From: Candidatus Omnitrophota bacterium
GTDB lineage: Bacteria; Omnitrophota; Gorgyraeia; 2-01-FULL-45-10
Direction of reading: 5' to 3'
Length of the DNA: 64,000 nt
NCBI GenBank assembly: GCA_041663425.1
Contig: JBAYMS010000001.1
Location: forward strand, 8,884 to 72,883
The position numbers were made by a program, and so were the translations under genes. Positions within the stretch are counted from its first letter, which is position 1, and every line of letters begins with the position of its first letter. Below are positions 17,393-45,084 of the stretch, piece by piece. The notes under the pieces are model-generated. The model had not been told where the DNA came from. It ran no database searches and saw nothing but the letters and a program-made list of their open reading frames with translations.

Positions 17393-17396
<4 letters not shown>

Positions 17397-28595: not shown

Positions 28596-30455
28596 ATGTG
28601 TGGAATAGTAGGATACATAGGAACAAAAAGTGCGCAGGAAGTGCTGCTGAAGGGATTGAGCCGTCTGGAATACAGGGGCTACGATTCCTCCGGCGTAGCT
28701 ATTATTGAATCTAAGAAGCTAAACCTGGTAAAACGACAGGGCAAGCTGCGCATATTGGCCGACGTCTTAAAAGAAGGTCCTTCCAAGGGTACGGTTGGTA
28801 TAGGTCATACGCGCTGGGCAACACACGGTATTCCCAATGACATAAATGCGCACCCCCATTTAGACTGCACAGGCAAGATAGCCGTAGTTCATAACGGCAT
28901 TGTCGAAAATTATCTCGAGCTCAAAAAAATCCTGATGAAAGAAGGGCACAAATTTATATCGGAAACCGATACCGAAATAATTGCGCACCTGATCGAAAAA
29001 TATTATAACGGACATCTAGAAGCCGCAGTTTTAAAAGCAATCAAACTGCTCAAAGGTTCTTATGCGATAGCTGTTGTGCATTCTGGGGAGCCGGATAAGA
29101 TAGTCGGAGCAAGGTGTGATTCACCACTTATCATAGGTCTGGGCGACGGGGAAAATTTTCTGGCAAGCGATGTTCCCGCCGTGCTTGATTATACGAAAGA
29201 CGTCATATATCTCGATAACCATGAGCTTATCATTCTGACCAAAACCGGCGTCACCATCAAAGATTATGACGGACGAGTTTTATCGAAAAAACCGTCTAAA
29301 ATAAAATGGGATATTAAACAGGCGGAAAAAGCCGGCCATGAACATTTTATGCTCAAAGAGATTTATGAGCAGGGCGACATCCTCAGAAATATACTCGACG
29401 AAAGACTGCATGGCGGCAAGGTGGTTTTTGAAGAGCTTGCCATAGAAGCCGCAGCATTCAAACATTTTAAAAAAATAGCTCTGGTAGCATGCGGTACCGC
29501 TTATCATGCGGGACTGACCGGTAAATACATGATAGAGGAATATGTCAGGATACCATGCTGGGTGGATACCTCGAGTGAATTTCGATACAGAGATCCCATT
29601 GTTGACAAGGAAACGCTCTTCATAGTTATTTCGCAGTCGGGAGAGACAGCAGATTCTCTGGCGGCGCTCCGGGAGGCAAAAAGGCGCGGGGCGACAACCT
29701 TGGGCATATGTAATGCCGTCGGAAGTTCTATAGCGAGGGAATCGGACGGAGTGATTTATACTCATGCGGGTCCGGAGATAGCGGTGGCGTCCACAAAAGC
29801 CTATACTGCACAGCTGGCGATACTTTATTTGTTGACGCTTTATATGGGCACATTGCGCGGCAATATATCGAAGACGAAACTGGAAAAGCTTATTGCAGAA
29901 TTCCGAAGAGCACCCGATCTTATGGACGAGCTCATAAGCGAATATAAAGATCCGTATAATAATATTGCAGCTTATGCGAGTGAATTTAAACGATATTACT
30001 ACGAAAAACACAATAAATCCTATTTCCTGTATCTCGGGCGTAACATAAATTATCCCAATGCGCTCGAAGGAGCTCTGAAGCTGAAGGAAATATCCTACAT
30101 CAGCGCTGAGGGGTATCCTGCCGGCGAGATGAAACACGGGCCGATAGCTCTGATAGACGAAAATCCATGGGTTGTCTGCATTGCCACACAGGCAAAGACT
30201 TATGACAAGATGTTATCCAATATCCAGGAGATAAAAGCGCGCAGCGGCATAGTAATAGCGCTTGTGACTGAAGGCGACAAAGAGATACAGCACCATAATG
30301 TCAACTATGTTATAGAGGTGCCGAAGATAGACGAGCTGTTCAGCCCGCTTTTGGTGGTGATACCGCTCCAGCTGCTTGCTTATTATGTCGCGAAAAAGTT
30401 CGGTTATGATATAGATCAGCCGCGCAATCTTGCAAAATCGGTAACAGTCGAATAA
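28596..30455 (+). CDS. glmS: Glutamine--fructose-6-phosphate aminotransferase. The ORF track starts at 28542; the canonical start is MCGIVGY at 28596.
   Basis: N-terminal Cys nucleophile MCGIVGYIG, a GATase2 domain, and two SIS domains ending in the ...SVTVE terminus. Confidence 0.9.
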   Translation: MCGIVGYIGTKSAQEVLLKGLSRLEYRGYDSSGVAIIESKKLNLVKRQGKLRILADVLKEGPSKGTVGIGHTRWATHGIPNDINAHPHLDCTGKIAVVHNGIVENYLELKKILMKEGHKFISETDTEIIAHLIEKYYNGHLEAAVLKAIKLLKGSYAIAVVHSGEPDKIVGARCDSPLIIGLGDGENFLASDVPAVLDYTKDVIYLDNHELIILTKTGVTIKDYDGRVLSKKPSKIKWDIKQAEKAGHEHFMLKEIYEQGDILRNILDERLHGGKVVFEELAIEAAAFKHFKKIALVACGTAYHAGLTGKYMIEEYVRIPCWVDTSSEFRYRDPIVDKETLFIVISQSGETADSLAALREAKRRGATTLGICNAVGSSIARESDGVIYTHAGPEIAVASTKAYTAQLAILYLLTLYMGTLRGNISKTKLEKLIAEFRRAPDLMDELISEYKDPYNNIAAYASEFKRYYYEKHNKSYFLYLGRNINYPNALEGALKLKEISYISAEGYPAGEMKHGPIALIDENPWVVCIATQAKTYDKMLSNIQEIKARSGIVIALVTEGDKEIQHHNVNYVIEVPKIDELFSPLLVVIPLQLLAYYVAKKFGYDIDQPRNLAKSVTVE

Positions 30456-30477
30456 TTTCGACGCAGAGCCTAAAATT

Positions 30478-31140
30478 ATGAACGGCACATTATATGTGGT
30501 TTCTACTCCCATAGGTAATCTGGAAGACATAACCCTGCGTGCCATAGAAACATTGAAATCGGTTGACCTTATCGCTGCCGAAGATACCCGCCACACAAAA
30601 ATACTGCTCGACAGATATGAAATAAGAACTCCGACGACAAGTTACTTCGAATATAATAAGATCCAGAAGACAGATTATCTTATAAAAGTTCTGCAGGAAG
30701 GTAAATCTGTTGCCCTGGTCTCTGATGCGGGCACGCCCGGCATATCGGATCCGGGGTATAGGGTTATCCATCTTTGTATAGAAAACGGAATATCGGTAGT
30801 GCCGATCCCGGGAGCCTCGGGGCTCATAACAGCTCTTACTATTTCAGGGAAACCTACTGATAAATTTACATTTGAAGGATTTTTATCAAATAAGGGTGCT
30901 AGAAGGAAAAATCAGCTTAAGAAATTGCACGAAGAGGGCAGAACGGCCGTTTTATATGAATCGCCGCACAGGATAGTGAAGATGCTGGAGGATGCCCTGG
31001 AAGTTTACGGCGATGTGGATATTGTTCTGGCCAGAGAGCTTACAAAGAAATTTGAGGAAGTGCGGCGCGAAAAGGTTTCCGCAACGATCGCGCACTTTAC
31101 ATCTCACGCGCCAAAAGGCGAATTTATTGTAATTATTTAA
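30478..31140 (+). CDS. rsmI: 16S rRNA (cytidine1402-2'-O)-methyltransferase RsmI-like tetrapyrrole-methylase-fold protein.
   Basis: GTLYVVSTPIGNLEDITLRAIETLKSVDLIAAEDTRHT is the RsmI N-terminal signature. The protein is shorter than usual (220 aa). Confidence 0.75.
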   Translation: MNGTLYVVSTPIGNLEDITLRAIETLKSVDLIAAEDTRHTKILLDRYEIRTPTTSYFEYNKIQKTDYLIKVLQEGKSVALVSDAGTPGISDPGYRVIHLCIENGISVVPIPGASGLITALTISGKPTDKFTFEGFLSNKGARRKNQLKKLHEEGRTAVLYESPHRIVKMLEDALEVYGDVDIVLARELTKKFEEVRREKVSATIAHFTSHAPKGEFIVII

Positions 31141-31207
31141 GCCCAAAATTACATTGACAAAATGCTTAAAGCGTGATACAATTACCACAATAAAGTTACC
31201 TTTTAAT

Positions 31208-31299
31208 GCCGGTCCAGAGAGTCCGGAAAAGGAGAAGTAAGGATGAATACCAGACCCACTTATCTGTTTTGTAAAAATGATAGGTGGGATTTTTATTTT
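31208..31299 (+). promoter_or_regulatory. PyrR-dependent transcription attenuator in the pyr leader (binding loop plus terminator).
   Basis: CCGG-UCCAGAGAGU-CCGG at about 31209..31226 matches the PyrR binding-loop consensus (UCCAGAGAGG). Downstream is a 10-bp hairpin cccacttatc/gataggtggg followed by ATTTTTATTTT (31255..31299). Confidence 0.55.
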
Positions 31300-31310
31300 A
31301 AGGCGGCCAT

Positions 31311-31859
31311 ATGACGTTCAAAGAAAAGACCAAAATACTCGATAAAGACGATATAGACAGATCCCTTCAGAGGATAGCCCACGAAATAGTAGAAAAAATA
31401 AAGGCCACCGAGGAAATAGCGATAATAGGCATAAAGAACCGCGGAGCGTATTTGGGCCAGCGGCTTGCTGAAAAAATAGGAAAGATAACCGGCTCGAAAA
31501 TACCGGTCGGTGCGCTTGATATCACACTATACAGAGACGATCTTACTGAGGCTTCAAGTCAGCCCATAGTCCATGCCACAGAAATAAATTTTGATATCGA
31601 GGGAAAAAAAATAATATTGGTAGACGATGTCCTGTATACCGGCAGGACGATAAGGTGTGCTCTGGATGCATTGATAGATTTTGGAAGGCCCGCCCAGATA
31701 CAGCTTGCCGTATTGGTTGACAGAGGCCACAGAGAGCTTCCGATAAGGGCAGATTATGTAGGTAAAAATGTCCCGACGTCTCTTAAAGAGGTCGTGGAAG
31801 TTAAGTTATCAGAGACCGAAGGCAAAGACGAAGTAGTGCTTTGCGAAAAAGATAGGTAA
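31311..31859 (+). CDS. pyrR: Bifunctional pyrimidine operon regulator / uracil phosphoribosyltransferase.
   Basis: PRTase motif [12 protein letters not shown] and PyrR family layout. First gene of the pyr cluster. Confidence 0.9.
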
Positions 31860-31863
31860 AGGG

Positions 31864-32808
31864 ATGGCAGAGAAGAAGATAGTCTGGACGAAGAAAGACC
31901 TTCTGGGGCTCGAATATCTTTCCAAAGAAGAGATCGAGCTCATTTTATATACAGCCGGAAGCTTTAAAGAAGTTACAACACGCCAGATAAAGAAAGTGCC
32001 CGCCCTGCGCGGCAAAACGGTGGTCAATTTATTCTATGAGCCCTCAACTAGAACGCGCACGTCGTTTGAACTTGCCGCAAAGCGCCTCTCAGCCGATGTC
32101 GTGAATATAGAGATAGAGACCTCCAGTGTGCGGAAAGGCGAGACCCTGATAGATACGGGGCGCAATATCGAAGCGCTGAAGATAGATATAATAGTGGTTC
32201 GGCACAACTGCAGCGGCGCTCCGATGATACTGGCGCGCAATGTGCAGGCGCGCGTGGTGAATGCCGGCGATGGATGGCATGAACATCCCACGCAGGCACT
32301 CCTGGATATGTTCACCCTGAAATCAAAACTCGGAAGAATCGAAGATCTGAAGGTAAGCATAATAGGCGACATAGCTCACTCACGTGTGGCACGGTCAAAT
32401 ATATGGGGGCTTACAAAGCTGGGCGCTAAAGTGACCGTATGCGCGCCGAAGCTTTTGGTTCCGGAAGGAATAGAAAAGATGGGCGTTAAGGTAACGACCG
32501 ACATAAGCGAAGCGCTCGAAGGGGCTGACGCGATAAATGTGCTTCGCATGCAATTTGAACGGGACGGTGCCATGGCATTTCCTTCGAAGCTGGAATATTT
32601 CAAGCAATATGGCATTACGGCCGAGCGTCTTTCGAAATGCAAAAAAGATATAGTTGTAATGCACCCGGGGCCGATAAACAGGGGCGTGGAGATGTCGAGC
32701 GAGGTAGCTGACGGGAAGAACTCGGTAATACTTGAGCAGGTGACCAACGGTATAGCGGTGAGGATGGCGGTCCTGTATCTGGTGGCTCACACAAAAGAGG
32801 CAGCATGA
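31864..32808 (+). CDS. pyrB: Aspartate carbamoyltransferase catalytic subunit.
   Basis: STRTR carbamoyl-phosphate motif, an HPTQ-type motif, and a HPGP-like region (VMHPGP). Confidence 0.9.
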   Translation: MAEKKIVWTKKDLLGLEYLSKEEIELILYTAGSFKEVTTRQIKKVPALRGKTVVNLFYEPSTRTRTSFELAAKRLSADVVNIEIETSSVRKGETLIDTGRNIEALKIDIIVVRHNCSGAPMILARNVQARVVNAGDGWHEHPTQALLDMFTLKSKLGRIEDLKVSIIGDIAHSRVARSNIWGLTKLGAKVTVCAPKLLVPEGIEKMGVKVTTDISEALEGADAINVLRMQFERDGAMAFPSKLEYFKQYGITAERLSKCKKDIVVMHPGPINRGVEMSSEVADGKNSVILEQVTNGIAVRMAVLYLVAHTKEAA

Positions 32809-34094
32809 GTAAACAATATCTTATAAAAGACGGAAGAGTGGTCGATCCCGCCAATAAAATAAACGATATTTTCGATATATTAATATCCGACGGGAAAATA
32901 GAAAAAACCGGCAAAAATTTAAATATTAAATCAGGCGAGACTATCGATGCTAAAGGAAAGATAGTTGCGCCAGGATTTATAGATATGCATGTTCATTTGC
33001 GAGAGCCCGGGCGGGAAGATGAAGAGACGGTCAGAACCGGATCCAGGGCGGCAGTCCACGGAGGATTTACCAGCATCCTTTGTATGCCAAATACCGATCC
33101 GGCTATTGATAATCCGGCAGTCGTGAAAAACCTGAAAGATATAATCGCCAAAGATGCCGTCTGCAACGTTTTTATAGCCGGCGCTGTTACCGAAGGCCGC
33201 ACGGGTAAAAAACTTACCGATTTTGATAACTTAAAATCCGCGGGAGTCATAGCGCTCTCCGATGACGGATCTCCGACGCCGGATAGTATGATCGACGAAG
33301 CTCTTAAGCGTTCAATGAAAGCAGGGCTTCTGCTCACAGAGCATTGTGAAGTGCCGCGGCTATCGCAGGGCGGTGTTATGAATAAAGGATTTATTTCAAC
33401 GAAGCTTGGCCTGAAAGGCATTTCCGCGCAATCAGAATATGAAGCGGTAAAACGCAATATCGACATCGCTGAAAAATTATCCGCGCGCATCCATATTGCC
33501 CACGTCAGCTGTAAAGAGTCGGTAGAGTTTATAAGGCAAGCTAAAAAGAAAGGCGTTCAGGTTACTACGGAGACAGCGCCGCATTACTTTGCGTTGAGTG
33601 AAGAATGCTGCGCTACATATGACACAAACACCAAGATCAACCCGCCTTTGCGGAGCATGGCGGATGTTGACGCGATAAAGGCAGGGCTTGCGGACGGCAC
33701 CATAGATGTGATAGCGACAGATCATGCACCCCACACAGATTCAGAAAAAGATGTCGAGTTTGATTATGCGCCGTTCGGGAAAATAGGCCTTGAAAGCGCT
33801 TTACCTGTCAGCGTTATGGAGCTTGTCGATAAGAAGATCTTATCATGGGATGAGCTTATAAAAAAGTTGTCAGCCAATCCTGCTAAAATACTGGGCGTGC
33901 CAGGCGGTAGATTAAGTAAAGGCGATCCTGCGGATATAACCATAATAGATCCCGATAAAGAATATATATTGAAAAAAGATATTATAGAATCGAAATCAAA
34001 AAATTCACCCTTCATAGGCTGGAAGGTGAAAGGGAGAATATCCACGGTTTTTGTAAAAGGCACAATAGTAATGAAGGATGAAATAATGTTATAA
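32805..34094 (+). CDS. pyrC: Dihydroorotase.
   Basis: Metal-binding DMHVHLREPG and the amidohydrolase fold. Overlaps the pyrB stop. Confidence 0.9.
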   Translation: MSKQYLIKDGRVVDPANKINDIFDILISDGKIEKTGKNLNIKSGETIDAKGKIVAPGFIDMHVHLREPGREDEETVRTGSRAAVHGGFTSILCMPNTDPAIDNPAVVKNLKDIIAKDAVCNVFIAGAVTEGRTGKKLTDFDNLKSAGVIALSDDGSPTPDSMIDEALKRSMKAGLLLTEHCEVPRLSQGGVMNKGFISTKLGLKGISAQSEYEAVKRNIDIAEKLSARIHIAHVSCKESVEFIRQAKKKGVQVTTETAPHYFALSEECCATYDTNTKINPPLRSMADVDAIKAGLADGTIDVIATDHAPHTDSEKDVEFDYAPFGKIGLESALPVSVMELVDKKILSWDELIKKLSANPAKILGVPGGRLSKGDPADITIIDPDKEYILKKDIIESKSKNSPFIGWKVKGRISTVFVKGTIVMKDEIML

Positions 34095-34105
34095 GAGGGA
34101 CAGCA

Positions 34106-35341
34106 ATGCCATTTATCGCCGACTTCCATATACACTCAAAATACTCACGCGCGACGGCAAAAGATATGGATCTGGCCTCGCTGGCAAAATGGGCGAAGAT
34201 AAAAGGCGTTGCAATGCTGGGCACCGGCGATTTTACCCACCCTTCGTGGTTTTCGGAACTTAAAAATAAATTAAAAGAAACAGATGCACCGGGCGTTTAT
34301 GAATACGAAGGCATATTATTCATACTGACGGCTGAAGTTTCAAATATATATTTTAAGGCAGGCAGGACCAGGAAAGTACACAATATAATATTTGCCCCAT
34401 CGCTTAATGCGGCTGAGGAAATAACTTCCGCAGTATCGGAATACGGCGAACTTTCCAGCGACGGCAGGCCGATCCTGAGTGTAGAATGCGACAGGATGGT
34501 CAGGCTCCTTACCAGGATAGACCCGAAGATTTTCTTTGTCCCCGCTCATGCGTGGACGCCGCACTTCAGTGTGTTCGGTTCGAATTCCGGATTTGACCTG
34601 CCCGAAGAGTGTTACGAAGACCAGACGGACAAAATATTTTCGATAGAGACCGGGTTGTCGAGCGATCCGGCCATGAACTGGCGCTGGTCCAGGCTCGACA
34701 GGTTTTGCATGACGTCCAACTCTGATGCGCATTCTCCGTCGAAAATAGGGCGCGAGGCGAATGTATTTAAAGATAAAATAAATTACACTGAGCTCATTGA
34801 TATACTTAAGAAAAAAGATAAGGCGCGGTTCCTTTACACGATAGAATTTTTTCCTGAAGAAGGAAAATACCACTGGGACGGGCACAGGGACTGCAAGGCA
34901 AGGTTTCCGCCGCGGGAAGCGATGAAGTTAAATAATATTTGCCCTGTCTGCGGCAAGAAGGTTACAATAGGTGTTATGCACAGGCTCGAAGGCCTGGCAG
35001 ACAGAAGCGAAGGATATGCCGATGCGGCGAGCCCTTCTTATAAAAGATTGGTGCCGCTGGCGGAGATCATAGGAAGTGCTTTTGGTGTAGGTACGGAATC
35101 CCTGAAGGTAGAAAGGGAATATTTCCGGTTAATTAAAAATTTCGGAACAGAATTTAATATGCTCCTGTATATGAACGAAAAGGAGCTTCGCGAAAGTCTC
35201 CCGGAGAGGATCGCCAGAGGAATTATAAACGTCCGCAGCGGCGATATCGAAATAAATCCGGGCTACGATGGAGAATACGGGAAAGTAACGGTTTTCAAAG
35301 AAGGCGACACGGCTCAGGATAAGCAGATGAGCTTCTTATAG
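34106..35341 (+). CDS. PHP-domain endonuclease Q (EndoQ)-like protein with a C-terminal zinc finger.
   Basis: DFHIHSKYSRAT, GTGDFTHPSW, PAHAWTP, LSSDPA, SNSDAHSP and IGREANVF motifs plus CPVCGKK...HRLEGLADRSE and RLVPLAEIIG. These align with my memory of archaeal EndoQ, which cleaves 5' of deaminated bases. Confidence 0.65.
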   Translation: MPFIADFHIHSKYSRATAKDMDLASLAKWAKIKGVAMLGTGDFTHPSWFSELKNKLKETDAPGVYEYEGILFILTAEVSNIYFKAGRTRKVHNIIFAPSLNAAEEITSAVSEYGELSSDGRPILSVECDRMVRLLTRIDPKIFFVPAHAWTPHFSVFGSNSGFDLPEECYEDQTDKIFSIETGLSSDPAMNWRWSRLDRFCMTSNSDAHSPSKIGREANVFKDKINYTELIDILKKKDKARFLYTIEFFPEEGKYHWDGHRDCKARFPPREAMKLNNICPVCGKKVTIGVMHRLEGLADRSEGYADAASPSYKRLVPLAEIIGSAFGVGTESLKVEREYFRLIKNFGTEFNMLLYMNEKELRESLPERIARGIINVRSGDIEINPGYDGEYGKVTVFKEGDTAQDKQMSFL

Positions 35342-35347
35342 GAAAAC

Positions 35348-36151
35348 ATGAAACAGCTGAACGAAAAAATACTGGATAATAAAAAGATGGGTGCAGGGTT
35401 CTGGCGCATGCGCATCTGTTCTGCGTATCTCGCCGGAAAGGCAAAGCCGGGGCAGTTTGTAGAGGTGAGGTGTTCGGCAGGCTCGGATCCGCTTTTGCGC
35501 AGGCCTTTGGGCATTCACAGGATCATAAAAGGCGGCGCGGAACTTTTATATGAAGTGGTCGGCAAAGGTACGGACATACTCTCTCAGAAGAAGAAGGGCG
35601 AGGAACTCGACCTGATAGGGCCCCTCGGAAACGGTTTTGATGTCCCCGGCCGTAAAGGGATAGCGATACTTGTTGCCGGCGGTAACGGAGTGGCTCCGTT
35701 ATTCGCGCTTGCGGAGAAAATTGAAAAGCTGGGATGGAAAGTTAAAGTGCTGATAGGTGCGCGCCACAATACGCATATTTTATGCGAAAAAGAATTTAAA
35801 TCGCTCGGGGCAGAGGTTATCGTTGCCACAGAGGATGGGTCAAAAGGACACAAAGGCCTTGTGACGCATCTACTGAAAACGGAGCTGGCAGGGGCACAAA
35901 CCGGTAAAGTAGTGAATGTATATGCCTGCGGGCCCATGGGGATGCTTAAGGCTGTCGCAAATATAGCGCGCGATTACAGAGCGCCGTGTCAGGTTTCGCT
36001 CGAGGAACGCATGGCATGCGGTGTAGGCGTGTGTCTGGGCTGCCCTGTTAAAATAAAAATAGGGCACGGGATAAACGAAGCCGGCTATACATATAAGATG
36101 GTTTGTAAAGACGGGCCTGTATTCGATGCAGAAGAAGTTTTCTGGGAATAA
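35348..36151 (+). CDS. pyrK: Dihydroorotate dehydrogenase electron-transfer subunit.
   Basis: FAD/NAD-binding ferredoxin-reductase fold, with a C-terminal 2Fe-2S Cys cluster (CGVGVCLGCPV). Confidence 0.85.
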   Translation: MKQLNEKILDNKKMGAGFWRMRICSAYLAGKAKPGQFVEVRCSAGSDPLLRRPLGIHRIIKGGAELLYEVVGKGTDILSQKKKGEELDLIGPLGNGFDVPGRKGIAILVAGGNGVAPLFALAEKIEKLGWKVKVLIGARHNTHILCEKEFKSLGAEVIVATEDGSKGHKGLVTHLLKTELAGAQTGKVVNVYACGPMGMLKAVANIARDYRAPCQVSLEERMACGVGVCLGCPVKIKIGHGINEAGYTYKMVCKDGPVFDAEEVFWE

Positions 36152-37079
36152 AAATATGAAACCTGATCTTCAAGTAAAAATAGGAACGCTGAAACTTAAA
36201 AACCCGGTCATGGTAGCGTCGGGGACATTCGGCGCTGAATACCGGGAGCTTGTCGATGTCGGTAAGCTGGGTGCGATAGTCACCAAGACCATTACGCTAA
36301 ACGGTCGCGCCGGCAATCCTGCCCCGAGAGTGGCGGAGGCATCTTCAGGTATGCTCAATTCGATAGGACTGGAAAACAAAGGGCTGGAAGATTTTATAAA
36401 CAAAAAAATACCGGCTTTTCCGGGCGGTGATACCAAACTTATTGTAAGTATTGCCGGAGACACCGAAGGTGAATTTACGCGCATGGTCGGAGAGCTCGAC
36501 AAAGTGAAGAAGGTGAGCGCTATAGAGATCAACCTCTCCTGCCCAAACGTAAAGCACGGCAGCAGGACCGGACTTACTGCCCAGGATGAGGACGCATCAT
36601 ACAGTGTAGTGCGCGCTGTGCGCAGGGCGACGGGACTGCCGATCATAGCGAAGCTTACTCCGAACGTAACCGATATAGCGAAGATAGCTGTGGCTGTGGA
36701 GAAGGCCGGTGCCGACGCTATCCTCGCAGTTAATACATTTGCCGCTATGGCTATCGATATCGAGACCCGCAGGCCTAAGCTCGGGAACGTGACGGGCGGT
36801 TTAAGCGGTCCGGCGATAAAACCTATAGCGCTGAAGATGATATGGGACATTTACAATAAAGTAGAAATCCCTATAATAGGTGTGGGCGGTATCATGAATT
36901 ATAAAGATGCCGTTGAATTTATGCTCTGCGGCGCGGCAGCGATACAGGTCGGCACGGCTACATTTGTAAATCCAAACACAGCGATCGAGATCATAAAAGG
37001 ACTTAATAAATACTGCAGTGATAAAAATATAAAAAATATGTCCGAGCTCGTCGGAAATATTAATATAGGCCGCTTGTAG
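36126..37079 (+). CDS. pyrD: Dihydroorotate dehydrogenase catalytic subunit (class 1B). The likely true start is MKPDLQVKI at about 36156.
   Basis: MVASGTFG, catalytic NLSCPN and the GVGGI motifs of PyrD. Confidence 0.85.
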   Translation: MQKKFSGNKNMKPDLQVKIGTLKLKNPVMVASGTFGAEYRELVDVGKLGAIVTKTITLNGRAGNPAPRVAEASSGMLNSIGLENKGLEDFINKKIPAFPGGDTKLIVSIAGDTEGEFTRMVGELDKVKKVSAIEINLSCPNVKHGSRTGLTAQDEDASYSVVRAVRRATGLPIIAKLTPNVTDIAKIAVAVEKAGADAILAVNTFAAMAIDIETRRPKLGNVTGGLSGPAIKPIALKMIWDIYNKVEIPIIGVGGIMNYKDAVEFMLCGAAAIQVGTATFVNPNTAIEIIKGLNKYCSDKNIKNMSELVGNINIGRL

Positions 37080-37087
37080 AACTCGCG

Positions 37088-37122
37088 GCACTTAGCCACA
37101 CCGTGGCTTAATAAACTTGGAG
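37088..37122 (+). repeat. Copy A of a conserved ~35-nt hairpin motif, immediately upstream of the pyrF start.
   Basis: gcacttagccacaccgtggcttaataaacttggag contains a perfect AGCCAC/GTGGCT stem. Related copies occur at 55046..55134. GGAG lies 5 nt upstream of the pyrF ATG. Confidence 0.4.
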
Positions 37123-37126
37123 CATT

Positions 37127-37840
37127 ATGACATCCATTAATAAATTGATAGTAGCGCTCGATGTAAATACCGAAGAAAAAGCGGTCGCCCTGGCTGAGAC
37201 GCTGAAAAATGAAGTGAGATTTCTCAAGATAGGCCTTGAGTTATTTTCAGCATGCGGGCCGAAGATAGTGGAGAGGATAAAAGAGACCGGCTGCGATGTA
37301 TTCCTCGACCTGAAATTTCATGACATTCCGACAACAGTTATGAAAGCCGCAGCAGCGGTAACTGCGCTCGAGCCTTTCATGTTCAATGTGCACGCGCTGG
37401 GCGGATATGAGATGATGAAACGGACTGCCGAGGCTGTAGCGAGCGAGACCTCAAGGCTCGAAATAGTAAAACCGAAAGTTCTGGCGGTGACGATACTTAC
37501 CAGCATGGACGAAAAGGCGATGAGAGAGATAGGGCTATCCTTAAATCCGAAAGACGCGGTTCTGAAATTGGCTGCTCTGGCGAAAAAAGCGGGCTTAGAC
37601 GGAGTGGTGGCTTCACCGTCCGAGACGAAAGCCATAAGGGAAGAGCTGGGCGAGGATTTTATTATAGTGACTCCGGGTGTGCGTCCGGAATGGGCCGCAG
37701 TAAATGATCAGAAGAGGGTCGCCACACCGAAAGCGGCAATAAAAGACGGCGCAAATTATATAGTTGTCGGCCGTCCGATAACGGAATATAAAGATCCTGC
37801 CGAAGCGGCCAGGCAGATACGAAAAGAGATGGAGATATGA
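37127..37840 (+). CDS. pyrF: Orotidine 5'-phosphate decarboxylase.
   Basis: LIVALDV...FLDLKFHDIPTT and the (I/V)VGR C-terminal motif. Confidence 0.9.
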   Translation: MTSINKLIVALDVNTEEKAVALAETLKNEVRFLKIGLELFSACGPKIVERIKETGCDVFLDLKFHDIPTTVMKAAAAVTALEPFMFNVHALGGYEMMKRTAEAVASETSRLEIVKPKVLAVTILTSMDEKAMREIGLSLNPKDAVLKLAALAKKAGLDGVVASPSETKAIREELGEDFIIVTPGVRPEWAAVNDQKRVATPKAAIKDGANYIVVGRPITEYKDPAEAARQIRKEMEI

Positions 37841-38406
37841 ACGAGAAAGAAGTTTTGGATGTATTTAATAAAAAGAATGCGTTGTTAACAGGCCATTTCA
37901 AATTATCGAGCGGCCTTCACAGTAAAAATTATCTGCAATGCGCCCTGATATTGCAGTATCCGGACATCGCGGAAGAGCTTTCGAAAGAGATAGCGAAAAG
38001 AGTTTCAAAAGAAAATATAGATGTGGTTGTAGGACCAGCTCTGGGCGGGGTAACATTTGCTTATGAGATCGCGAGAGCACTTAAAGTGCGCGGGCTATTT
38101 ACGGAACGACAGGAAGGTGCGATGGTGCTGCGCCGCGGTTTTACTATATCGCCGGGTGAGAAAGTTCTTGTGGCAGAAGACGTTATAACAACGGGCGGTT
38201 CTACTAAAGAAGTCATCGAAGTTGTAAAAAAGCTGGGCGGTATCGTGGTCGGAGTAGCGAGCATAATAGACAGAAGCTCAGAGCCTGTGGACTTCGGCGT
38301 GCCGTTTACGGCTCTTGCCAGGATAAAGGTTGAGACTTTCAAAGAAGAAGATTGTCCTCTCTGTAAGGCAAAAACCCCGATAACAAAGCCCGGCTCGAGA
38401 AAATAA
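37837..38406 (+). CDS. pyrE: Orotate phosphoribosyltransferase.
   Basis: PRTase motif VLVAEDVITTGGS. Overlaps pyrF and ends the operon. Confidence 0.9.
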   Translation: MNEKEVLDVFNKKNALLTGHFKLSSGLHSKNYLQCALILQYPDIAEELSKEIAKRVSKENIDVVVGPALGGVTFAYEIARALKVRGLFTERQEGAMVLRRGFTISPGEKVLVAEDVITTGGSTKEVIEVVKKLGGIVVGVASIIDRSSEPVDFGVPFTALARIKVETFKEEDCPLCKAKTPITKPGSRK

Positions 38407-38466
38407 GCATAAATTCTAAATTATTGCGTCCGGACGGGCGGTTATGGTATTATATTTTCCACTTTA

Positions 38467-38541
38467 GGGCAAGTAGCTCAATGGCGGAGCAATCGGTTTA
38501 CATCCGATAGGTTACAGGTTCGACCCCTGTCTTGCCCACCA
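38467..38541 (+). tRNA. tRNA-Val (anticodon UAC).
   Basis: GGGCAAGTAGCTCAATGGCGGAGCAATCGGTTTACATCCGAT...GGTTCGACCCCTGTCTTGCCCACCA. Confidence 0.85.
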
Positions 38542-38592
38542 CTTCTCTGAATAACCCAAGCCATGCAGTCCCGAGGAGATGTGGTTTGACTG

Positions 38593-38859
38593 ATGCGACG
38601 AGGGACACTTAACCCTATGAGCAAGTGGACTGTTTATATTCTTAAATGTAATGACGCTTCTTTATATACCGGCATTACGACCGATCTTGAAAAACGGGTA
38701 AAAAAGCACAATGAAGGCCGTGCTGCGAAGTACACGAGAGCAAAAAGGCCTGTTTCAGTGGTTTATACTGAAGGCGCTGTTAATTCATCCTCAGCTAAAA
38801 AGAGAGAAGCCGAGATAAAAAAATTATCTCGACAAGCTAAGGTAGAGCTGATAAAATAA
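38593..38859 (+). CDS. GIY-YIG nuclease family protein (UPF0213-like). The likely start is MSKWTVYIL at about 38617.
   Basis: WTVYILKCNDASLYTGITTDLEKRVKKHNEG..AKYTRAKRPV is the GIY-YIG core. The gene is sandwiched between two tRNA genes. Confidence 0.7.
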   Translation: MRRGTLNPMSKWTVYILKCNDASLYTGITTDLEKRVKKHNEGRAAKYTRAKRPVSVVYTEGAVNSSSAKKREAEIKKLSRQAKVELIK

Positions 38860-38873
38860 GCTTCCAGATTTCC

Positions 38874-38950
38874 GGGGACGTAGTTCAGTTGGTTAGAACG
38901 TCAGATTGTCGATCTGAAGGTCGCGGGTTCGACCCCCGTCGTCCCCGCCA
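38874..38950 (+). tRNA. tRNA-Asp (anticodon GUC).
   Basis: GGGGACGTAGTTCAGTTGGTTAGAACGTCAGATTGTCGATCTGA...GGTTCGACCCCCGTCGTCCCCGCCA. Confidence 0.85.
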
Positions 38951-39104
38951 TATAGAAACAGTAACTGGTTTAATACCAGATGATTAGCCGTAACAAGTTG
39001 TAAATTCAACTGGTTACGGCTATTTTATTTATCTTGCGTGTTTTGGAAATTAGCGCTATTCTTGGAAGTGATGGCACAAAAATGGCACAGTCATAGGGCT
39101 CCGA

Positions 39105-39599
39105 ATGGCGAATAATATTGATGTTTCAAAACTTCCGCTAAGCAAGATATTGATTTTGTTTGGCGACTTAATGGATGAGCTGAAGAAAAGAGGCGTTGTT
39201 AGAACGCGTAATAATCCGGTAGCTGACTATGCCGAATGGCTAACGGTAAGAGTCTTTAGTCTTGGCATCCAAACAAGCTCTAACAAAGGCTTTGATGCCA
39301 TTGATAAAAAAGGAATTCGATACCAAATAAAAGGCCGTAGGCTCGATGCTTCAAACCCATCCCGGCAATTGGGGGTTATTCGCGATCTTGATAAAAAGGG
39401 ATTCGATTTTCTTATCGCTATCATATTTAACAAAGATTTTACTATTCACGATGCCTATAAAATTCCGCACGAGCTCATAGGCGAATACGCTCGTTATAGT
39501 AAACATCAAAATGGATATATATTACACCTTAAAGGAAAAATTCTTCTGGCAAAAGGCGTTGAGAATATTACCGGAGCATTAAGCAAAGTTTCGGCATGA
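39105..39599 (+). CDS. Hypothetical small protein, possibly a PD-(D/E)xK-like nuclease or DNA-binding fold. First gene of a two-gene module.
   Basis: 164 aa. GFDAIDKKGIRYQIKGRR fits a D...(E/Q)xK pattern after an upstream acidic residue (ADYAEW). It sits in AT-rich DNA and ends 7 nt before the next ORF. Confidence 0.35.
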   Translation: MANNIDVSKLPLSKILILFGDLMDELKKRGVVRTRNNPVADYAEWLTVRVFSLGIQTSSNKGFDAIDKKGIRYQIKGRRLDASNPSRQLGVIRDLDKKGFDFLIAIIFNKDFTIHDAYKIPHELIGEYARYSKHQNGYILHLKGKILLAKGVENITGALSKVSA

Positions 39600-39606
39600 G
39601 GAGATT

Positions 39607-42477
39607 ATGAACTATCCACGAGGGTCGGAATGGAGAAAATGGGACTTACATTTACACACACCGTCTTCTTATGATTACGATGACAAGAGCGTCACAGATG
39701 AGCAATTGATTAAAACCTTAAAAGAAAACGAAATTACCGTTGTAGCTATAACGGATCATCATTTTATAGATGTTGAAAAGATAAAGAAACTACAAGAATT
39801 AGCAAAAGACGAAATTACAATATTCCCGGGGATTGAGCTTCGAGCAGAGCTGGGAGGTAGCGAATCCATCCATTTTATAGGAATATTCCCAGAGGATTCT
39901 GATGTAAATGATATTTGGACAAAATTACAGGGGCAGTTAGAATTAACGCCAGCGGATGTAAAGAAAAAAGGTAATGATAAGATTTATTGCCATTTGAATA
40001 AGGCCGCCGAGCTTATTCATCAGTTGGGAGGCATTATAACTATTCATGCTGGCTCGAAAAGTAACTCGGTTGAAAAAATCACTAATGCGCTTCCATATAA
40101 AGAAGCGCTTAAAGAAGACATTGTGAAATCTATCAATGTCTATGAAATCGGGAATTCAGCCGATGTGGAAGGATACAGAAGCAATGTTTTTCCGAACATA
40201 GGGATTAAAATTCCTTTGGTAATTTGTTCTGACAACCACGATATAAAAAAGTATGTGTTAAAAGAGAATTGTTGGATAAAAGCAGATCCAACATTTACCG
40301 GGTTAAAGCAGATTATATTAGAGCCGGAGGATAGGGTATATATTGGCAAAGCTCCAACGAGGAGGAAAAACCTCGCCAGCGTAATCGACAAGATTGAGAT
40401 TAGTAATTCTAACGGGTGGTTTGAGGAATCCCCTATTGTTTTAAACGAAGACTTGGTCACCATAATAGGAGAAAAAGGTGCCGGTAAGACCGCGCTTGCC
40501 GATTTTATAGCTCTGGCGGGCGGGGATTTTGGGCTTCAAAAAAGCGATGCTAGCTCTTTTGTATTCAAAGCTCTAACCCCTACCAAACAAATCGAGAAGA
40601 CCATTGAAAATTGTCAAGTAACTATCAAATGGAAAGAGGGCAATCCCGACCAGATAACTATAAACAAAGAGCTGGTTGATTATAAACCTACGAAGAAAGT
40701 AAAATATTTATCTCAAAGTTTTATTGAGGAAAAATGTCGCCCAGAACACGCTGATGAATTGAGAAAAGAAATCGAGAATATCGTTTTTCAATATATACCA
40801 ACATCCGATAGGCTTGGGCAAACAACATTTAACGATTTAAAACGTTTAATGACGCGGGGTATTGAAGTAGAAAAAAGTAACTGCAGACAGCTTTTATTCG
40901 ACCTCAATGGTGAAATTTCTATTCTAAGAGACGAGATAGATAATCTCGAAGTACAAAAGTCAACTAAGAAGAAAACTGAAGATGAAATAACTCAGTTAAA
41001 TGAACAGAAACCAAAACCTGCTGATGCCGAGGAAAAAGCCATCGAAGATAAGCTGGCTATTTTATATACCAAGAAAAGTGAGATTAACGAAAAAGTTGCA
41101 GAATGCAAGTTGCAATTAAGCACCATAGAATCTATAAAAACAAAGCTGCTAGCTCTAAGTCAATACGTTGAAAAAGAATTGATTAGCATTAAGACGGACC
41201 TTGATTCAATAGCTTTAGGCAGTATTTACAACAAGCTAACATTTTCAATAAATCCAGAATTTCATACGAAGCTTGATGAAGCTAAGAATAAGCTGACGAA
41301 ACAGATTAAAGATTTTGAAGGAGCGCCGGAAAAAGTATCGTCCCTCACCGAAGATGAGAAAAAACTAGAGCTGATAACGACTGATTTTGTCAATGGGCTC
41401 ACACTTTCTCGTTTAGATGTAATTATAGAATGGCTAGAAACAAAATCGAGCATTGCCTATGATGCAAGAAAAGTTATTAAGGATTTCGAAGAGAAAATAG
41501 AGAAAAATAAGAAAGCAGTAGCATCTTTAGAAAAAAGCATCGCCGAGGTAGAGAAAACAAAAAAACCTACTCTTGCGAAGAAAATCGAGGAAAGAAATAG
41601 TGCCTATAAAAGTTATTTCACTTTGCTCCAAAAAGAAAAAAGTGTATTTGAAAGCCTGAGCGCACCTATTAAAACAAAAATTGATTCAGAGAATGTTGGT
41701 GATAAGCAGATAGGTTACTCAGCAAGAATTGAATTTGATGTTAATGGATTTTATGAAAAAGCATGTGAAATAATAAATTTCAAAGCAGCTGGTCATTATC
41801 ATCAAGATGGCCAACTGTTATTTAAAGATATCAAAGCCATAGCAGAAAAGATTGAGCTCGCAGAAGATGCCGATGTTTGCGCTTGTCTTGTAGACCGGTT
41901 CATTCAAACATTCGAAAAAGATGATGGTAGCGATGTTGATATTAAAACTCAACTGAAAAAAGGTAAAAAACAAATTGATTTTGATGCATGGCTTTTTGGT
42001 ATTTCATTCTTCAGCGTGACATATAGCATAAAATACCAAGATACTTATATTGAATTGCTATCTCCTGGAAAAAAAGGGATAGTGTTGTTACTAATGTATC
42101 TCACGTTAGATGCTGAGAGTGGCATACCGTTGATTATAGACCAACCAGAAGAAAATCTAGACAACAAATCCGTATATGCGCATCTAATAGAATACTTCCG
42201 CCAAGCCAAGAAGCGGCGGCAAATTATCGTTGTAACACACAATCCGAATTTAGTATTAAATACAGATGCCGAACAAGTGCTTGTTGCTGATTTTCAAGTC
42301 GTACCACCTGCGGGGCAAGCAAGAATAAGATATATAAGCGGGTCTATAGAAAATTCGTTTATTAACGAGTCTCTCAAAGACCCTCTCAGAAGACAGGGTA
42401 TTCGCGAGCATGGTGCCGAGATATTGGAGGGCGGTAAAAAGGCCTTTATTCAGCGAAAAGATAAGTACGAATACTAA
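39607..42477 (+). CDS. Fusion protein: N-terminal PHP phosphoesterase domain plus a Rad50/SbcC/RecN-like coiled-coil ABC ATPase.
   Basis: PHP motifs WDLHLHT, ITDHH, GIE and SDNHD in roughly the first 230 aa. Walker A GEKGAGKT. About 350 aa of K/E-rich coiled coil. C-terminal signature LSPGKKG, Walker B LIIDQPEENLD and H-loop VVTHNP. Confidence 0.65.
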   Translation: MNYPRGSEWRKWDLHLHTPSSYDYDDKSVTDEQLIKTLKENEITVVAITDHHFIDVEKIKKLQELAKDEITIFPGIELRAELGGSESIHFIGIFPEDSDVNDIWTKLQGQLELTPADVKKKGNDKIYCHLNKAAELIHQLGGIITIHAGSKSNSVEKITNALPYKEALKEDIVKSINVYEIGNSADVEGYRSNVFPNIGIKIPLVICSDNHDIKKYVLKENCWIKADPTFTGLKQIILEPEDRVYIGKAPTRRKNLASVIDKIEISNSNGWFEESPIVLNEDLVTIIGEKGAGKTALADFIALAGGDFGLQKSDASSFVFKALTPTKQIEKTIENCQVTIKWKEGNPDQITINKELVDYKPTKKVKYLSQSFIEEKCRPEHADELRKEIENIVFQYIPTSDRLGQTTFNDLKRLMTRGIEVEKSNCRQLLFDLNGEISILRDEIDNLEVQKSTKKKTEDEITQLNEQKPKPADAEEKAIEDKLAILYTKKSEINEKVAECKLQLSTIESIKTKLLALSQYVEKELISIKTDLDSIALGSIYNKLTFSINPEFHTKLDEAKNKLTKQIKDFEGAPEKVSSLTEDEKKLELITTDFVNGLTLSRLDVIIEWLETKSSIAYDARKVIKDFEEKIEKNKKAVASLEKSIAEVEKTKKPTLAKKIEERNSAYKSYFTLLQKEKSVFESLSAPIKTKIDSENVGDKQIGYSARIEFDVNGFYEKACEIINFKAAGHYHQDGQLLFKDIKAIAEKIELAEDADVCACLVDRFIQTFEKDDGSDVDIKTQLKKGKKQIDFDAWLFGISFFSVTYSIKYQDTYIELLSPGKKGIVLLLMYLTLDAESGIPLIIDQPEENLDNKSVYAHLIEYFRQAKKRRQIIVVTHNPNLVLNTDAEQVLVADFQVVPPAGQARIRYISGSIENSFINESLKDPLRRQGIREHGAEILEGGKKAFIQRKDKYEY

Positions 42478-42655
42478 GTTTAATAATCAATTGCTGAGAA
42501 TAAATATAAACAAGAACTGATTAATCGCTGGTCTAAGCTTTATGGTAAACAGATAACCGAAGAAGAATATCGACAGATTTGTGATAATTTAAGCGGTTAC
42601 ATTAAACTTTTGTATGAGTGGGATATGAAAGATAAAACGCAAAAAGGAGAGCACA

Positions 42656-42880
42656 ATGCCAAGGATAGCAAGTAATGTTTGCCCAGCGTGTCATAATAAG
42701 TTTCCTGCACACAAAGGTAACACGAAAACTTTTAGACAACTTACGCCGGCGGAGAGAAGTAGGTCTATTAGAATGATGGCTATCAATTTAAAGAAGGCTA
42801 TAAATGCTGACTTGCCATCGACCCGTATCAGACGGCTTTTTTGGGTTATAGATTATATGGCGCGGCAGGGAAGCAGGTAA
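42656..42880 (+). CDS. Hypothetical small protein, low confidence; lies in a region of gene remnants beside the IS.
   Basis: 74-aa ORF with a single CPAC motif. An unanchored open frame upstream (42497..42679) has no start codon. Likely decayed island cargo. Confidence 0.2.
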   Translation: MPRIASNVCPACHNKFPAHKGNTKTFRQLTPAERSRSIRMMAINLKKAINADLPSTRIRRLFWVIDYMARQGSR

Positions 42881-43037
42881 CAAATGATACATGAAAAAAA
42901 CGTATTTAACGATATCTTCGCTGATTTGATTTGCCATTCCCAGTTTGATGGAGGGCATAATCCTTTAGATTATTTGCACTATATGGACAAAATGGAACAG
43001 GCTAGAAAAAATAATAATGAAGAAGTGACCTTACCCC

Positions 43038-43751
43038 TTACACTGCACAGCTCGTAAGGTGAATTTCTGGTGTTTTTTGTTGTTCTTTCCAGGCCTTGGT
43101 GAACTCTGCCGGAGTTAGACCGTCTAACGATCCGTGAGGCCTGAATGTATTATACTCCACTCTCCAGTCTTCGATAATCTTTTTTGCTTCTTCAATCGTA
43201 ACGAAGTAATGTTGATTGAGGCATTCGTGCCGTAGCCTACCATTGAACGACTCGATAAAAGCGTTCTGTATGGGCTTGCCGGGCTTTATAAAGTCAAGCC
43301 TAGCACCGTTATCATACGCCCATTTATCAAGGGCTCGTCCCGCGAACTCAGGACCGTTATCGGTCGTGATTACTTGCGGACATCCTCTTGTAAGAACTAG
43401 CCAATCAAGCACTCTCGTTACTCTGTTACCGTCTATAGACGTATCGACTTCGATAGAGAGACATTCTTTAGTAAAGATATCAAGCACGTTCAGCGTCTTT
43501 ATCTTCCTGCCGTTCCATAACCCGTCTGACATAAAGTCCATCGCCCAGCGTTCATTGGGCTTCGAGGCTTCCGGTAGCTCTAGTCTGATCATTGAGGCTC
43601 TCTTGTGACGTTTGCGAAGCTTTAGCGCGAGGCTATTCTCCTTATAGATGCGCTCGGTGCGCTTATGGTTTACTACAAGTCCCTCACGATGCAATATATC
43701 GTGAAGCATCGGAAGTCCCCAGCTCTTATGCGTAGCTATAAGCTCCTTCAT
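43038..43751 (-). CDS. IS3-family transposase OrfB (integrase core / DDE). It probably extends upstream to about 43888 as an OrfAB fusion through frameshifting.
   Basis: rve-domain motifs: WAMDFM...D, the VITTDNGPEF region, and ...E at FIESFNGRLRHECLN. Confidence 0.8.
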   Translation of the reverse strand: MKELIATHKSWGLPMLHDILHREGLVVNHKRTERIYKENSLALKLRKRHKRASMIRLELPEASKPNERWAMDFMSDGLWNGRKIKTLNVLDIFTKECLSIEVDTSIDGNRVTRVLDWLVLTRGCPQVITTDNGPEFAGRALDKWAYDNGARLDFIKPGKPIQNAFIESFNGRLRHECLNQHYFVTIEEAKKIIEDWRVEYNTFRPHGSLDGLTPAEFTKAWKEQQKTPEIHLTSCAV

Positions 43752-43888
43752 ACGGTCTAATATCTTCGCATCGTTATTAGCTCTACTGGTCTTGTAATAA
43801 TAGCTTGATCTATTAAGCTCTACAAGCCTGCATGATCTAGCCTTCGACAGCCCAAAGCGCTCTTTTAACCGAGCTACAGCAAGTCTCT

Positions 43889-44167
43889 TTACTTTGGGCT
43901 TAGGAAGTTTTTTGAGTTGAGCGCCTTTAACGCCTGGTTATCGAGTGTTAAGTCCGCGACTATGTTCTTTAGTCTGCGGTTCTCATCCTCGAGCGCCCTT
44001 AGTTTCTTCGCGTCTGATACTTCCATGCCGCCATACTTCGATATCCACTTATAGATCGTGCCTTCACAGACATTAGCTTCTCTTGAGATATCTGAAACCG
44101 CCACTCCTTGCTCATGTCTCTTTAAAAAAGCTATTATCTGTTCCTCTGTAAATCTTTTGCGTGACAT
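43889..44167 (-). CDS. IS3-family transposase OrfA (HTH).
   Basis: MSRKRFTEEQIIAFLKRHEQGVAVSDISREANVCEGTIYKWISKY...LEDENRRLKN is the typical IS3 OrfA with a leucine zipper. Confidence 0.8.
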   Translation of the reverse strand: MSRKRFTEEQIIAFLKRHEQGVAVSDISREANVCEGTIYKWISKYGGMEVSDAKKLRALEDENRRLKNIVADLTLDNQALKALNSKNFLSPK

Positions 44168-44517
44168 ATCCCGAGCCTCCTTTACGTAGCTATTGGTAGC
44201 TACGGTTATACACTAGGAAACTCGCCTTGTAAACTGTCTAGTTTAGCGGGGTAGGGTCACTTTCGTCAGTTTAAATTATGGCGAGCCCGCAGATTTTTAC
44301 ATTGTCCCAAGCAAAGTCGTTGCAACCTTCATAAAAAAACATAATCGAAAGTGGCTTAAGACCCCCGGCAGAAAAGGCCAGAAACACAACCAAACCTCAA
44401 TGAGACAATTTAGAGACGACGAACAGCGATATCGTAACGCATATTACCTCATGAAGTTGTAATATTTTGTAAATTTATATAATAGTTTAAGGGACGGTTC
44501 TGACGAAAATCTGACCG

Positions 44518-45084
44518 GTGACATACCACCGACAGGTTCCTATGATACTCAAAGACTATGACATATCGTTAGTATATAGGCTACTTGAGCCGGGCCCGGT
44601 TGTGATGGTAACAACATCGCGGGATGGCAGGCCCAATGTTATGACTATGTCCTGGCATACCATGATGGAATTTACCCCGCCTCTTATAGGATGTGTTATA
44701 AGTGACAGGAATTACACATTCGATGCGCTCAAAGCCACAAAAGAATGCGTTATTGCGATACCTTCGGTAAAGCTTGCAGGCAAAGTGGTGCAGGTGGGCA
44801 GTGTTTCAGGCCGGAACACGGATAAATTTAAAACAATAGGACTTACTCCGAAACCCGCCTTTATAGTGAAAGCGCCTATCATAGCCGAATGTTTTGCAAA
44901 CATAGAATGCAGGGTGGTAGATACCTCGCTGGTAAATAAATATAATTTCTTCATAATGGAAGCGGTGAAAGCTTCCATAGATCACGCGCAAAAAAATCCG
45001 AAAACCCTCCATCATCATGGTAAAGGAACGTTCGTTTCCGATGGCGTAAAAATAAGGCGTAAATTTAACAGCCTTGAGCCATAG
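44518..45084 (+). CDS. Flavin reductase-like (FMN-binding split-barrel) domain protein.
   Basis: GPVVMVTTSRDGRPNVMTMSWHTMM and ...GSVSGRNTDKF are typical Flavin_Reduct motifs. Confidence 0.65.
   Translation: MTYHRQVPMILKDYDISLVYRLLEPGPVVMVTTSRDGRPNVMTMSWHTMMEFTPPLIGCVISDRNYTFDALKATKECVIAIPSVKLAGKVVQVGSVSGRNTDKFKTIGLTPKPAFIVKAPIIAECFANIECRVVDTSLVNKYNFFIMEAVKASIDHAQKNPKTLHHHGKGTFVSDGVKIRRKFNSLEP

Follow-up and report, generated by a model that had tools for sequence, protein, structure and literature searches.

What is the AT-rich DNA that follows the pyrimidine (pyr) operon and a tRNA-Asp gene in this Candidatus Omnitrophota genome, and how did it come to be there? The locus lies in a 64,000-nucleotide stretch of contig JBAYMS010000001.1 (assembly GCA_041663425.1, positions 8,884 to 72,883 of the forward strand); this whole stretch is called the window below, and its coordinates are used throughout. 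The locus holds two large genes for nucleases, several small or broken open reading frames (ORFs) and an insertion sequence (IS). It is probably a decayed accessory or defence islet of about 5.5 kb in a variable hotspot, in which a BisI-like restriction endonuclease and a TrlF-family protein are independent nucleases and in which an IS-associated deletion has occurred. In kind it is an ordinary small accessory islet built of known families; its mode of acquisition is something that we infer.

The limits of the islet can be placed by comparison with relatives. Two scans with PyrE, the first over species-representative genomes and the second over contigs from metagenomes, yielded two useful ones: L001, another Omnitrophota metagenome-assembled genome (MAG) with a 92% identical PyrE and about 76% nucleotide identity to the window, and L108, a 1.2-kb contig with 88% nucleotide identity and the closer of the two. 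The features that bound the islet are:

38467..38541, plus strand: tRNA-Val, anticodon TAC (ARAGORN; Rfam 68.5 bits); core, following pyrE likewise in L001 and L108
38617..38859, plus strand: stand-alone GIY-YIG protein of 80 amino acids (aa) between both tRNAs (Pfam PF01541, 6.7e-20); core
38874..38950, plus strand: tRNA-Asp, anticodon GTC (ARAGORN; Rfam 72.9 bits); core
38985..39022, plus strand: hairpin with 16-nt arms, then a T-rich run (inverted repeat I7, 94% complementary)
39031..~44517, no strand: variable AT-rich accessory interval, without similarity to L001 between window positions 39030 and 44541
44542..45084, plus strand: flavin-reductase-domain gene, the right-hand conserved anchor (Pfam Flavin_Reduct, 5e-31; possible GTG start at 44518)

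L001 is collinear with the window over 28595-38950, matches it again at the hairpin (window 38962-39030, L001 11197-11264), and then only at the flavin reductase gene (44541-45084), whose product is 74% identical in amino acids to that of L001 17809-18369. The L108 alignment ends at window position 38949, the 3' end of tRNA-Asp, and diverges there; of the two relatives, the hairpin thus recurs only in the more distant L001. Since it is common to L001, the hairpin is taken as core, and it is the probable terminator of the tRNA cluster. The order tRNA-Val, GIY-YIG, tRNA-Asp is the same in L001 and L108 (three-way alignment), with the GIY-YIG protein at that position 92.5% identical in L108 and 80% in L001; therefore the two tRNAs and the GIY-YIG gene are conserved backbone, not islet, and judged from these alignments the backbone, hairpin included, takes up 38467-39030. 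A sequence-only reading of this DNA had listed tRNA-Val, a GIY-YIG nuclease and tRNA-Asp in that order, which ARAGORN, Rfam and Pfam bear out, and had seen the gene content change directly after the pyr operon, with a tRNA first; the operon does lie directly upstream. It had also begun its island with tRNA-Val at 38467 and called it tRNA-flanked. Conservation of tRNA-Val, GIY-YIG and tRNA-Asp in both relatives moves that boundary: both tRNAs are core genes, and the islet adjoins one of them only.

What occupies the same site in the relatives? In L001, the corresponding interval (11265-17808) contains 6.5 kb of other genes: three ORFs of unknown kind, a TPR protein, DUF748 and MscL. This cargo is AT-rich too, at 39.5% GC (guanine plus cytosine) as against 52% in its flanks, with its three unknown ORFs at 32-36%. 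No defence matches were found in it with PADLOC and NCBIfam (six ORFs scanned, MscL left out), and there is no integrase in it. Because L001 holds different, likewise AT-rich DNA there, the interval between the tRNA-Asp terminator and the flavin reductase gene behaves as a small accessory hotspot for foreign DNA.

Composition points the same way in the window. Across the two large genes (39105-42477) GC is 0.372, compared with 0.433 +/- 0.023 in all other 3.4-kb windows (z = -2.6, and under the control-window minimum of 0.378); the tetranucleotide distance of the same segment has z = 4.9, with none of 129 control windows equally extreme. GC at third codon positions (GC3) is 0.335-0.345 in the two genes versus about 0.45, and the interval as a whole, with the IS excluded, has a GC of 0.374 versus 0.43 for the window. 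The nuclease and ATPase genes had been described beforehand as lying in AT-rich DNA, and the GC and tetranucleotide (k-mer) check did show a compositional shift. Could there nevertheless be no island, only native, lineage-specific genes at a synteny breakpoint, AT-rich by virtue of gene function or expression level? Synteny with L001 does break once more past the flavin reductase, there without any change in composition, and the comparison covers two relatives only. Set against this are a composition more extreme than that of every control window, families of both large genes that are spread over phyla, plasmids and viral contigs, the presence of gene remnants and an IS, and the occupation of the same interval in L001 by other AT-rich DNA, and such an origin seems extremely unlikely.

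Two unusual nuclease/ATPase genes were expected after tRNA-Asp, and both are found, at 39105-39599 and 39607-42477:

39105..39599, plus strand: BisI-family modification-dependent (Type IIM) restriction endonuclease of the PD-QxK type, 164 aa (PDB, PADLOC and Pfam matches)
39607..42477, plus strand: TrlF-family protein, 956 aa, with an N-terminal PHP phosphoesterase and a Rad50/SMC-like ABC ATPase with a coiled-coil insert (NCBIfam NF045780)

The 164-aa protein is, by homology, a BisI-family modification-dependent restriction endonuclease. Its match in the PDB to the Eco15I N-terminal domain (8q5m) is gap-free, at E = 1.2e-42, with NhoI (8q5n) following at E = 1.4e-19; it also matches the PADLOC model mREase_II (Type II methyl-directed REase, 3.1e-60) and Pfam DUF6998. 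Residues E44, D64, Q74 and K76 align with the active-site residues of Eco15I and NhoI (helix Glu, Asp, QxK), and in 15 homologues E44, D64 and K76 are invariant and Q74 nearly so (E in one). Also conserved are R93, the equivalent of Eco15I Arg98, and H134. Enzymes of this family are dimers with a PD-(D/E)XK-type site, essential in Eco15I, and cut within GCNGC only if several cytosines are 5-methylcytosine or 5-hydroxymethylcytosine; their methyl pocket consists of (H/R)(V/I/T/M) and a proximal Arg (His139-Val140 and Arg98 in Eco15I), and the solved ones act alone (PMC11347163). The protein in the window resembles Eco15I and the family in size (164 aa versus a catalytic unit of about 170 aa), in its gap-free alignment to Eco15I_Ntd, in keeping E...D...QxK and the Arg98 equivalent, and in being encoded by a stand-alone gene. 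It differs in lacking the C-terminal domain of Eco15I, in its host, an uncultured Omnitrophota bacterium from which it is known by sequence alone, and in its pocket pair, which would be H134-Q135 (residues mapped by HMMER alignment with a +5 offset) instead of (H/R)(V/I/T/M); the motif HQNG, residues 134-137, is conserved across its BisI subfamily. By homology to Eco15I and NhoI, the enzyme would act as a dimer, cutting DNA with several 5-methyl- or 5-hydroxymethylcytosines in a short site and so restricting phages and plasmids with modified DNA.

The 956-aa protein belongs, on its profile match, to the TrlF family: it scores 566.4 bits against NCBIfam NF045780 (curated cut-off 350), aligning over its residues 5-955 (profile positions 1-944). 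Among the PHP metal ligands, D13, H15, H17, D50, E77 and D209 are invariant in 21 homologues and H211 is conserved in at least 90%; in the ATPase, G288-K294 (Walker A), Q370 (Q-loop), S819-G821 (signature), D845-E848 (Walker B) and H878 (H-loop) are likewise invariant. A sequence search of solved structures gave no match, and likeness to these is at fold level. The AlphaFold (AF2) model has a pLDDT (predicted local distance difference test) score of 82.6, and Foldseek matches it to the heads of Rad50, SMC, JetC and MukB, with their coiled coils, and matches its N-terminal domain to PHP domains from RNase AM and Pol III alpha. This predicted fold suggests that ATP-controlled head engagement might recognise DNA ends or structures, which the PHP nuclease would then degrade. 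Such a function would be analogous to that of Mre11-Rad50/SbcCD, and it would also resemble that of the PHP-NTPase anti-phage protein Ppl.

Comparison with Ppl has its limits. The two share an N-terminal PHP nuclease followed by an NTPase in one large protein and a defence-island context, but the ATPase of the TrlF protein is Rad50/SMC-like with a long coiled coil, and the protein is not a Ppl family member: the Ppl model NF042955 matches residues 6-305 only, at 120 bits versus a cut-off of 1000, and the PADLOC Ppl model likewise matches just the N-terminal part. With the TrlF of Photorhabdus and the NCBIfam TrlF family it shares a full-length, above-cut-off match and the PHP plus ABC-ATPase architecture. 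The locus, on the other hand, differs from the Photorhabdus Trl locus: no match to Alba_2 or HATPase_c_4, the TrlG domains, was found among the neighbours of the gene, there is no TrlG or TrlR gene and so no trlR-trlF-trlG operon here, and what flanks the gene is a BisI-like gene upstream and small ORFs downstream. Like many plasmid-borne members of the family, the gene here lacks a conserved partner specific to the family, the BisI-like nuclease beside it being unrelated.

Do the two nucleases form a system? The BisI-like and TrlF genes are on the same strand, head to tail and 7 bp apart, with the GGAG ribosome-binding site of the TrlF gene overlapping the stop codon of the BisI-like gene, and they are probably co-transcribed; their GC and GC3 are similar. 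It is conceivable that the BisI-like enzyme breaks modified invader DNA and that TrlF, as a Rad50-like PHP nuclease, loads on the ends and destroys the DNA. A precedent of sorts is Ppl, described as an exonuclease that is released from inhibition by nucleoside triphosphates (NTP); its reported substrates are 3'-OH ends that endonucleases have made (PMC12904381). Against this, a BisI-like gene is absent from all of 45 TrlF loci, and TrlF from all of 10 BisI-like loci (contexts inspected: four plus three close loci, two plasmid loci and 44 viral-contig loci). The nearest relatives of the BisI-like gene (58-78% identity) are either solitary or accompanied by type I restriction-modification (R-M) genes; the closest TrlF homologues (50-62%) have as neighbours a type I R-M system, toxin-antitoxin pairs on either side, or a methyltransferase on one side and a helicase on the other, and plasmid copies of TrlF stand alone. 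Even the nearest homologue of each gene (78% and 62% identity) thus lacks the partner, and the solved BisI-family enzymes, as noted above, need none. Coupled action of the two therefore appears very unlikely. A conserved two-gene module, the form in which the sequence-only reading had presented the genes when it spoke of a PHP-ATPase module, was rejected, the pairing being absent from all 55 other loci. From these contexts, the two genes are read as separate defences, each of a single gene, that are stacked in the same islet.

Downstream of the nucleases the islet is in decay. Its small coding features are:

42487..42679, plus strand: start-less ORF, a decayed copy of a 53-aa gene (homology to L179 4302-4463)
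42656..42880, plus strand: ORF of 74 aa with a CxxC motif and a good ribosome-binding site, from a small protein family of unknown function (homologues)
42884..43025, plus strand: head of an ORF, 47 codons, entering the IS; no homologues, an orphan or truncated gene
44260..44462, plus strand: 3' remnant (last 67 codons and stop) of a gene of about 150 aa with a PD-(D/E)xK-like motif (tblastn)

Searches of these small ORFs against Pfam and PHROGs returned weak, unusable matches only. The start-less ORF is 58% identical over 43 aa (E = 7e-13) to a called 53-aa gene, L179 4302-4463, and at the homologous start it has no ATG, GTG or TTG and no ribosome-binding site. For the 74-aa ORF, a library of 1.84 billion proteins yielded 11 homologues (best E = 1.4e-10), which span 53-691 aa, with nine falling within 53-91 aa; it is probably a genuine small gene. 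L081 and L082, two contigs that come from other samples and assemblies, are 100% identical to the window and stop short of the IS by about 150 nt, at 42860 and 42873; their ends may mark population heterogeneity starting near the end of this ORF.

The ORF at 42884 is in frame with the sequence beyond the IS, and the joined product would have 114 aa. Simple insertion of the IS into one 114-aa gene was considered and rejected: homologues of 145-159 aa match the part after the IS only, and their N-terminal 83 residues are missing. In tblastn, residues 79/84-145/150 of proteins P0241-P0253 fall on 44259-44459 at 74-88% identity, and the first 83 residues of these homologues of about 150 aa are absent from the window. 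As the homologues match only the 67 codons past the IS and the N-terminus is absent, 44260-44462 represents the 3' remnant of a gene, truncated precisely where the IS ends. The start-less fragment (seen earlier as 42497..42679, here 42487-42679 and homologous to a called gene) and the ORF running into the IS (earlier 42886..43026, here starting at 42884) had both been recognised in the sequence-only reading, as had subsequent decay, which is borne out by one gene without a start and another without its first 83 codons that ends exactly at the IS terminus; the third remnant, 44260-44462, is an addition to it.

Homologues of the truncated gene were seen in two settings, each time next to a divergent XRE regulator. 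The first is an element that also carries CBASS, a resolvase, a tyrosine integrase and TraG; the second is an SNF2-helicase/TIR-protein island, which holds the 53-aa gene as well. A larger mobile element may once have been at this site, which would fit integration followed by decay. The family of about 150 aa has some interest of its own. It matches no Pfam, PADLOC or NCBIfam model (L177 7691-8453, L179 7720-8453), has a GVDILV...IQVKT (PD-QxK-like) motif, and is paired with a divergent XRE-type helix-turn-helix gene in both contexts seen, inside defence islands or integrative and conjugative elements; possibly this is a family of small nucleases or toxins that has yet to be described.

The element that cuts the remnant had been assigned to the IS3 family, correctly, and can be delimited as follows:

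43026..44259, minus strand: intact IS3-family insertion sequence, 1234 bp (inverted repeat I16; NCBIfam transpos_IS3, 2.8e-61; Pfam rve and HTH_Tnp_1)
43889..44167, minus strand: IS3 orfA, 92 aa, HTH_Tnp_1 (Pfam)
43038..43913, minus strand: IS3 orfB, DDE/rve transposase, reached through -1 frameshifting at A_AAA_AAC (heptamer, 43913-43907)

A_AAA_AAC is in the orfA frame, and the 280-aa orfB frame is open across the heptamer, without a stop codon. The orfB product is 51% identical to ISKpn34-type transposases, its nearest annotated relatives, and the ends are imperfect terminal inverted repeats of the TG...CA type, with TGACC(C/T)TACCCC at both; there is one copy in the window. In its orfA and orfB with A_AAA_AAC -1 frameshift, its DDE (rve) transposase, its TG...CA repeats and its size of about 1.2 kb the element is a typical member of the family. 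It differs in that no target-site duplication of 3-5 bp was found at any plausible boundary (the flanks read AAG and CTT) and in that its flanks come from unrelated sequences. Because the duplication is missing and the two flanks are from unrelated sequences, IS-mediated deletion is suggested: either a deletion next to the IS and associated with it, or recombination between two copies of the IS, would have removed the 5' part of the gene of about 150 aa and adjoining DNA. An integrase or an attachment (att) site could have been included in what was lost.

How, then, did the islet arrive? Genomic and defence islands are known beside tRNA genes, for example the asp, leu and phe tRNAs in Enterobacteria, and core genomes have defence hotspots. 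The present islet is like these in lying immediately downstream of a tRNA gene, in its deviant AT-rich composition, in its defence-type cargo, IS and pseudogenes, and, as far as two relatives can show, in a cargo that differs from genome to genome between the same flanking genes. It is unlike them in lacking both an integrase and an attL/attR copy of the tRNA 3' end, in being very small (5.5 kb), and in that its foreign DNA begins past the tRNA terminator, not inside the tRNA.

One possibility is that the 3' end of tRNA-Asp was the target of site-specific insertion by an integrative element, which later lost its integrase and distal att site by decay. The islet adjoins tRNA-Asp, and L108 diverges exactly at the 3' end of that gene; the truncated gene of about 150 aa has homologues in an element with a tyrosine integrase, resolvase and TraG, and an IS without a target duplication is compatible with a deletion that could have taken the integrase. 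However, the terminator hairpin is common to L001, so the foreign DNA starts about 80 nt past the tRNA, not within it, and the different cargo of L001 is likewise without an integrase. Nor does the islet itself offer the expected marks. There is no integrase or recombinase among the ORFs at 38.9-44.5 kb, where the sole DDE enzyme is the IS3 transposase; a blastn-short search of 38874-39035 against the window gave only chance 9-11-mers in 39-44.5 kb, and nothing from the tRNA 3' end is repeated over 12 nt or more; and a repeat search of the window likewise found no att-like repeat marking an insertion. A direct repeat of the tRNA-Asp 3' end, which had been suggested near 44.3-44.5 kb, is neither there nor elsewhere in the interval. 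With no att-like repeat and no integrase, site-specific integration is therefore unproven, and an origin of this kind is considered unlikely. Of the earlier proposal of an integrated defence or mobile island, the accessory, horizontally acquired look, the defence-type genes, the IS and the remnants stand, and the marks of integration (att, integrase) are absent.

The same absence of an integrase and of an att-like repeat also counts against a decayed accessory islet in a hotspot, as do several other points. A truly empty site was not seen among the two close relatives, one of them just a 1.2-kb contig: both carry different content after tRNA-Asp, where the sequence-only reading had proposed to look for an empty site. 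In the search for a strain-level empty site, exact-protein look-ups (PyrE, GIY-YIG, TrlF) returned only short contigs 100% identical to the window, and the metagenome contig scan added L108 alone. The loss of synteny with L001 just past the flavin reductase, mentioned above, means that part of the difference from L001 could be ordinary rearrangement. The putative IS-mediated deletion draws on the missing duplication and the mismatched flanks. For the BisI-like enzyme, H-Q in place of (H/R)(V/I/T/M) may mean a different modification specificity. For TrlF, neither an anti-phage phenotype nor a biochemical function was found in the literature searched, in which its sole link to a phenotype is the temperature-restriction locus of Photorhabdus, after which the family is named and where the mutations behind the phenotype mapped to trlG, not trlF (bioRxiv 10.1101/2020.06.02.129163). 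The decayed islet, with its two stacked nucleases, nevertheless remains the probable reading.

Some features of the surroundings deserve mention. The pyrimidine operon upstream of the islet is complete (pyrR, pyrB, pyrC, a TIGR00375-family gene, pyrK, pyrD, pyrF, pyrE); the TIGR00375-family gene, of 411 aa at 34106-35341 between pyrC and pyrK, scores 187 bits, below the cut-off of 326. Proteins identical to those of the window are deposited as WCY36_00290 and WCY36_00295 (Candidatus Omnitrophota MAG). Other ORFs of the window, in 17393-18490 and 21078-23613, also have low GC/GC3 (0.351/0.276, 0.382/0.388 and 0.390/0.334), and may be further acquired genes.

The conserved GIY-YIG gene lies inside the tRNA pair, 75 nt past tRNA-Val and 14 nt ahead of tRNA-Asp, and does so in all three genomes; this spacing suggests that it is co-transcribed with both tRNAs, its mRNA being freed by tRNA processing. 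In L108 (812-1143), tRNA-Asp is followed directly by a further, different GIY-YIG gene, of 83 aa, which shares 44% identity with the conserved one. An inverted repeat of 18 nt, 94% complementary, encloses it and extends with its left arm into the final bases of the tRNA. It may be that small GIY-YIG genes of this lineage are mobile in their own right around tRNA genes.

For annotation, two large "hypothetical proteins" can now be named, one as a BisI-family Type IIM restriction enzyme and the other as a TrlF-family PHP/Rad50-like nuclease-ATPase, and the limits of the island shift, leaving the tRNAs and the GIY-YIG gene outside. For altered modification specificity, the HQNG form of the BisI methyl pocket offers a modest lead. 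Functional study of the TrlF family is the most useful one: members occur across phyla, plasmids and viral contigs, and the fold predicted for it, which would make it a single-chain counterpart of Mre11-Rad50 equipped with a PHP nuclease, provides a testable hypothesis. If coupled defence were true after all, with hypermodified phage DNA broken by the endonuclease and the genome then destroyed processively from those ends by the PHP nuclease, TrlF, widespread but lacking an established function, would gain a role as an end-sensing effector. The locus may also illustrate that an IS can erase the marks of how accessory DNA arrived. More generally, uncultured Omnitrophota appear to use small, fast-turnover defence hotspots by tRNA genes, as in well-studied bacteria.

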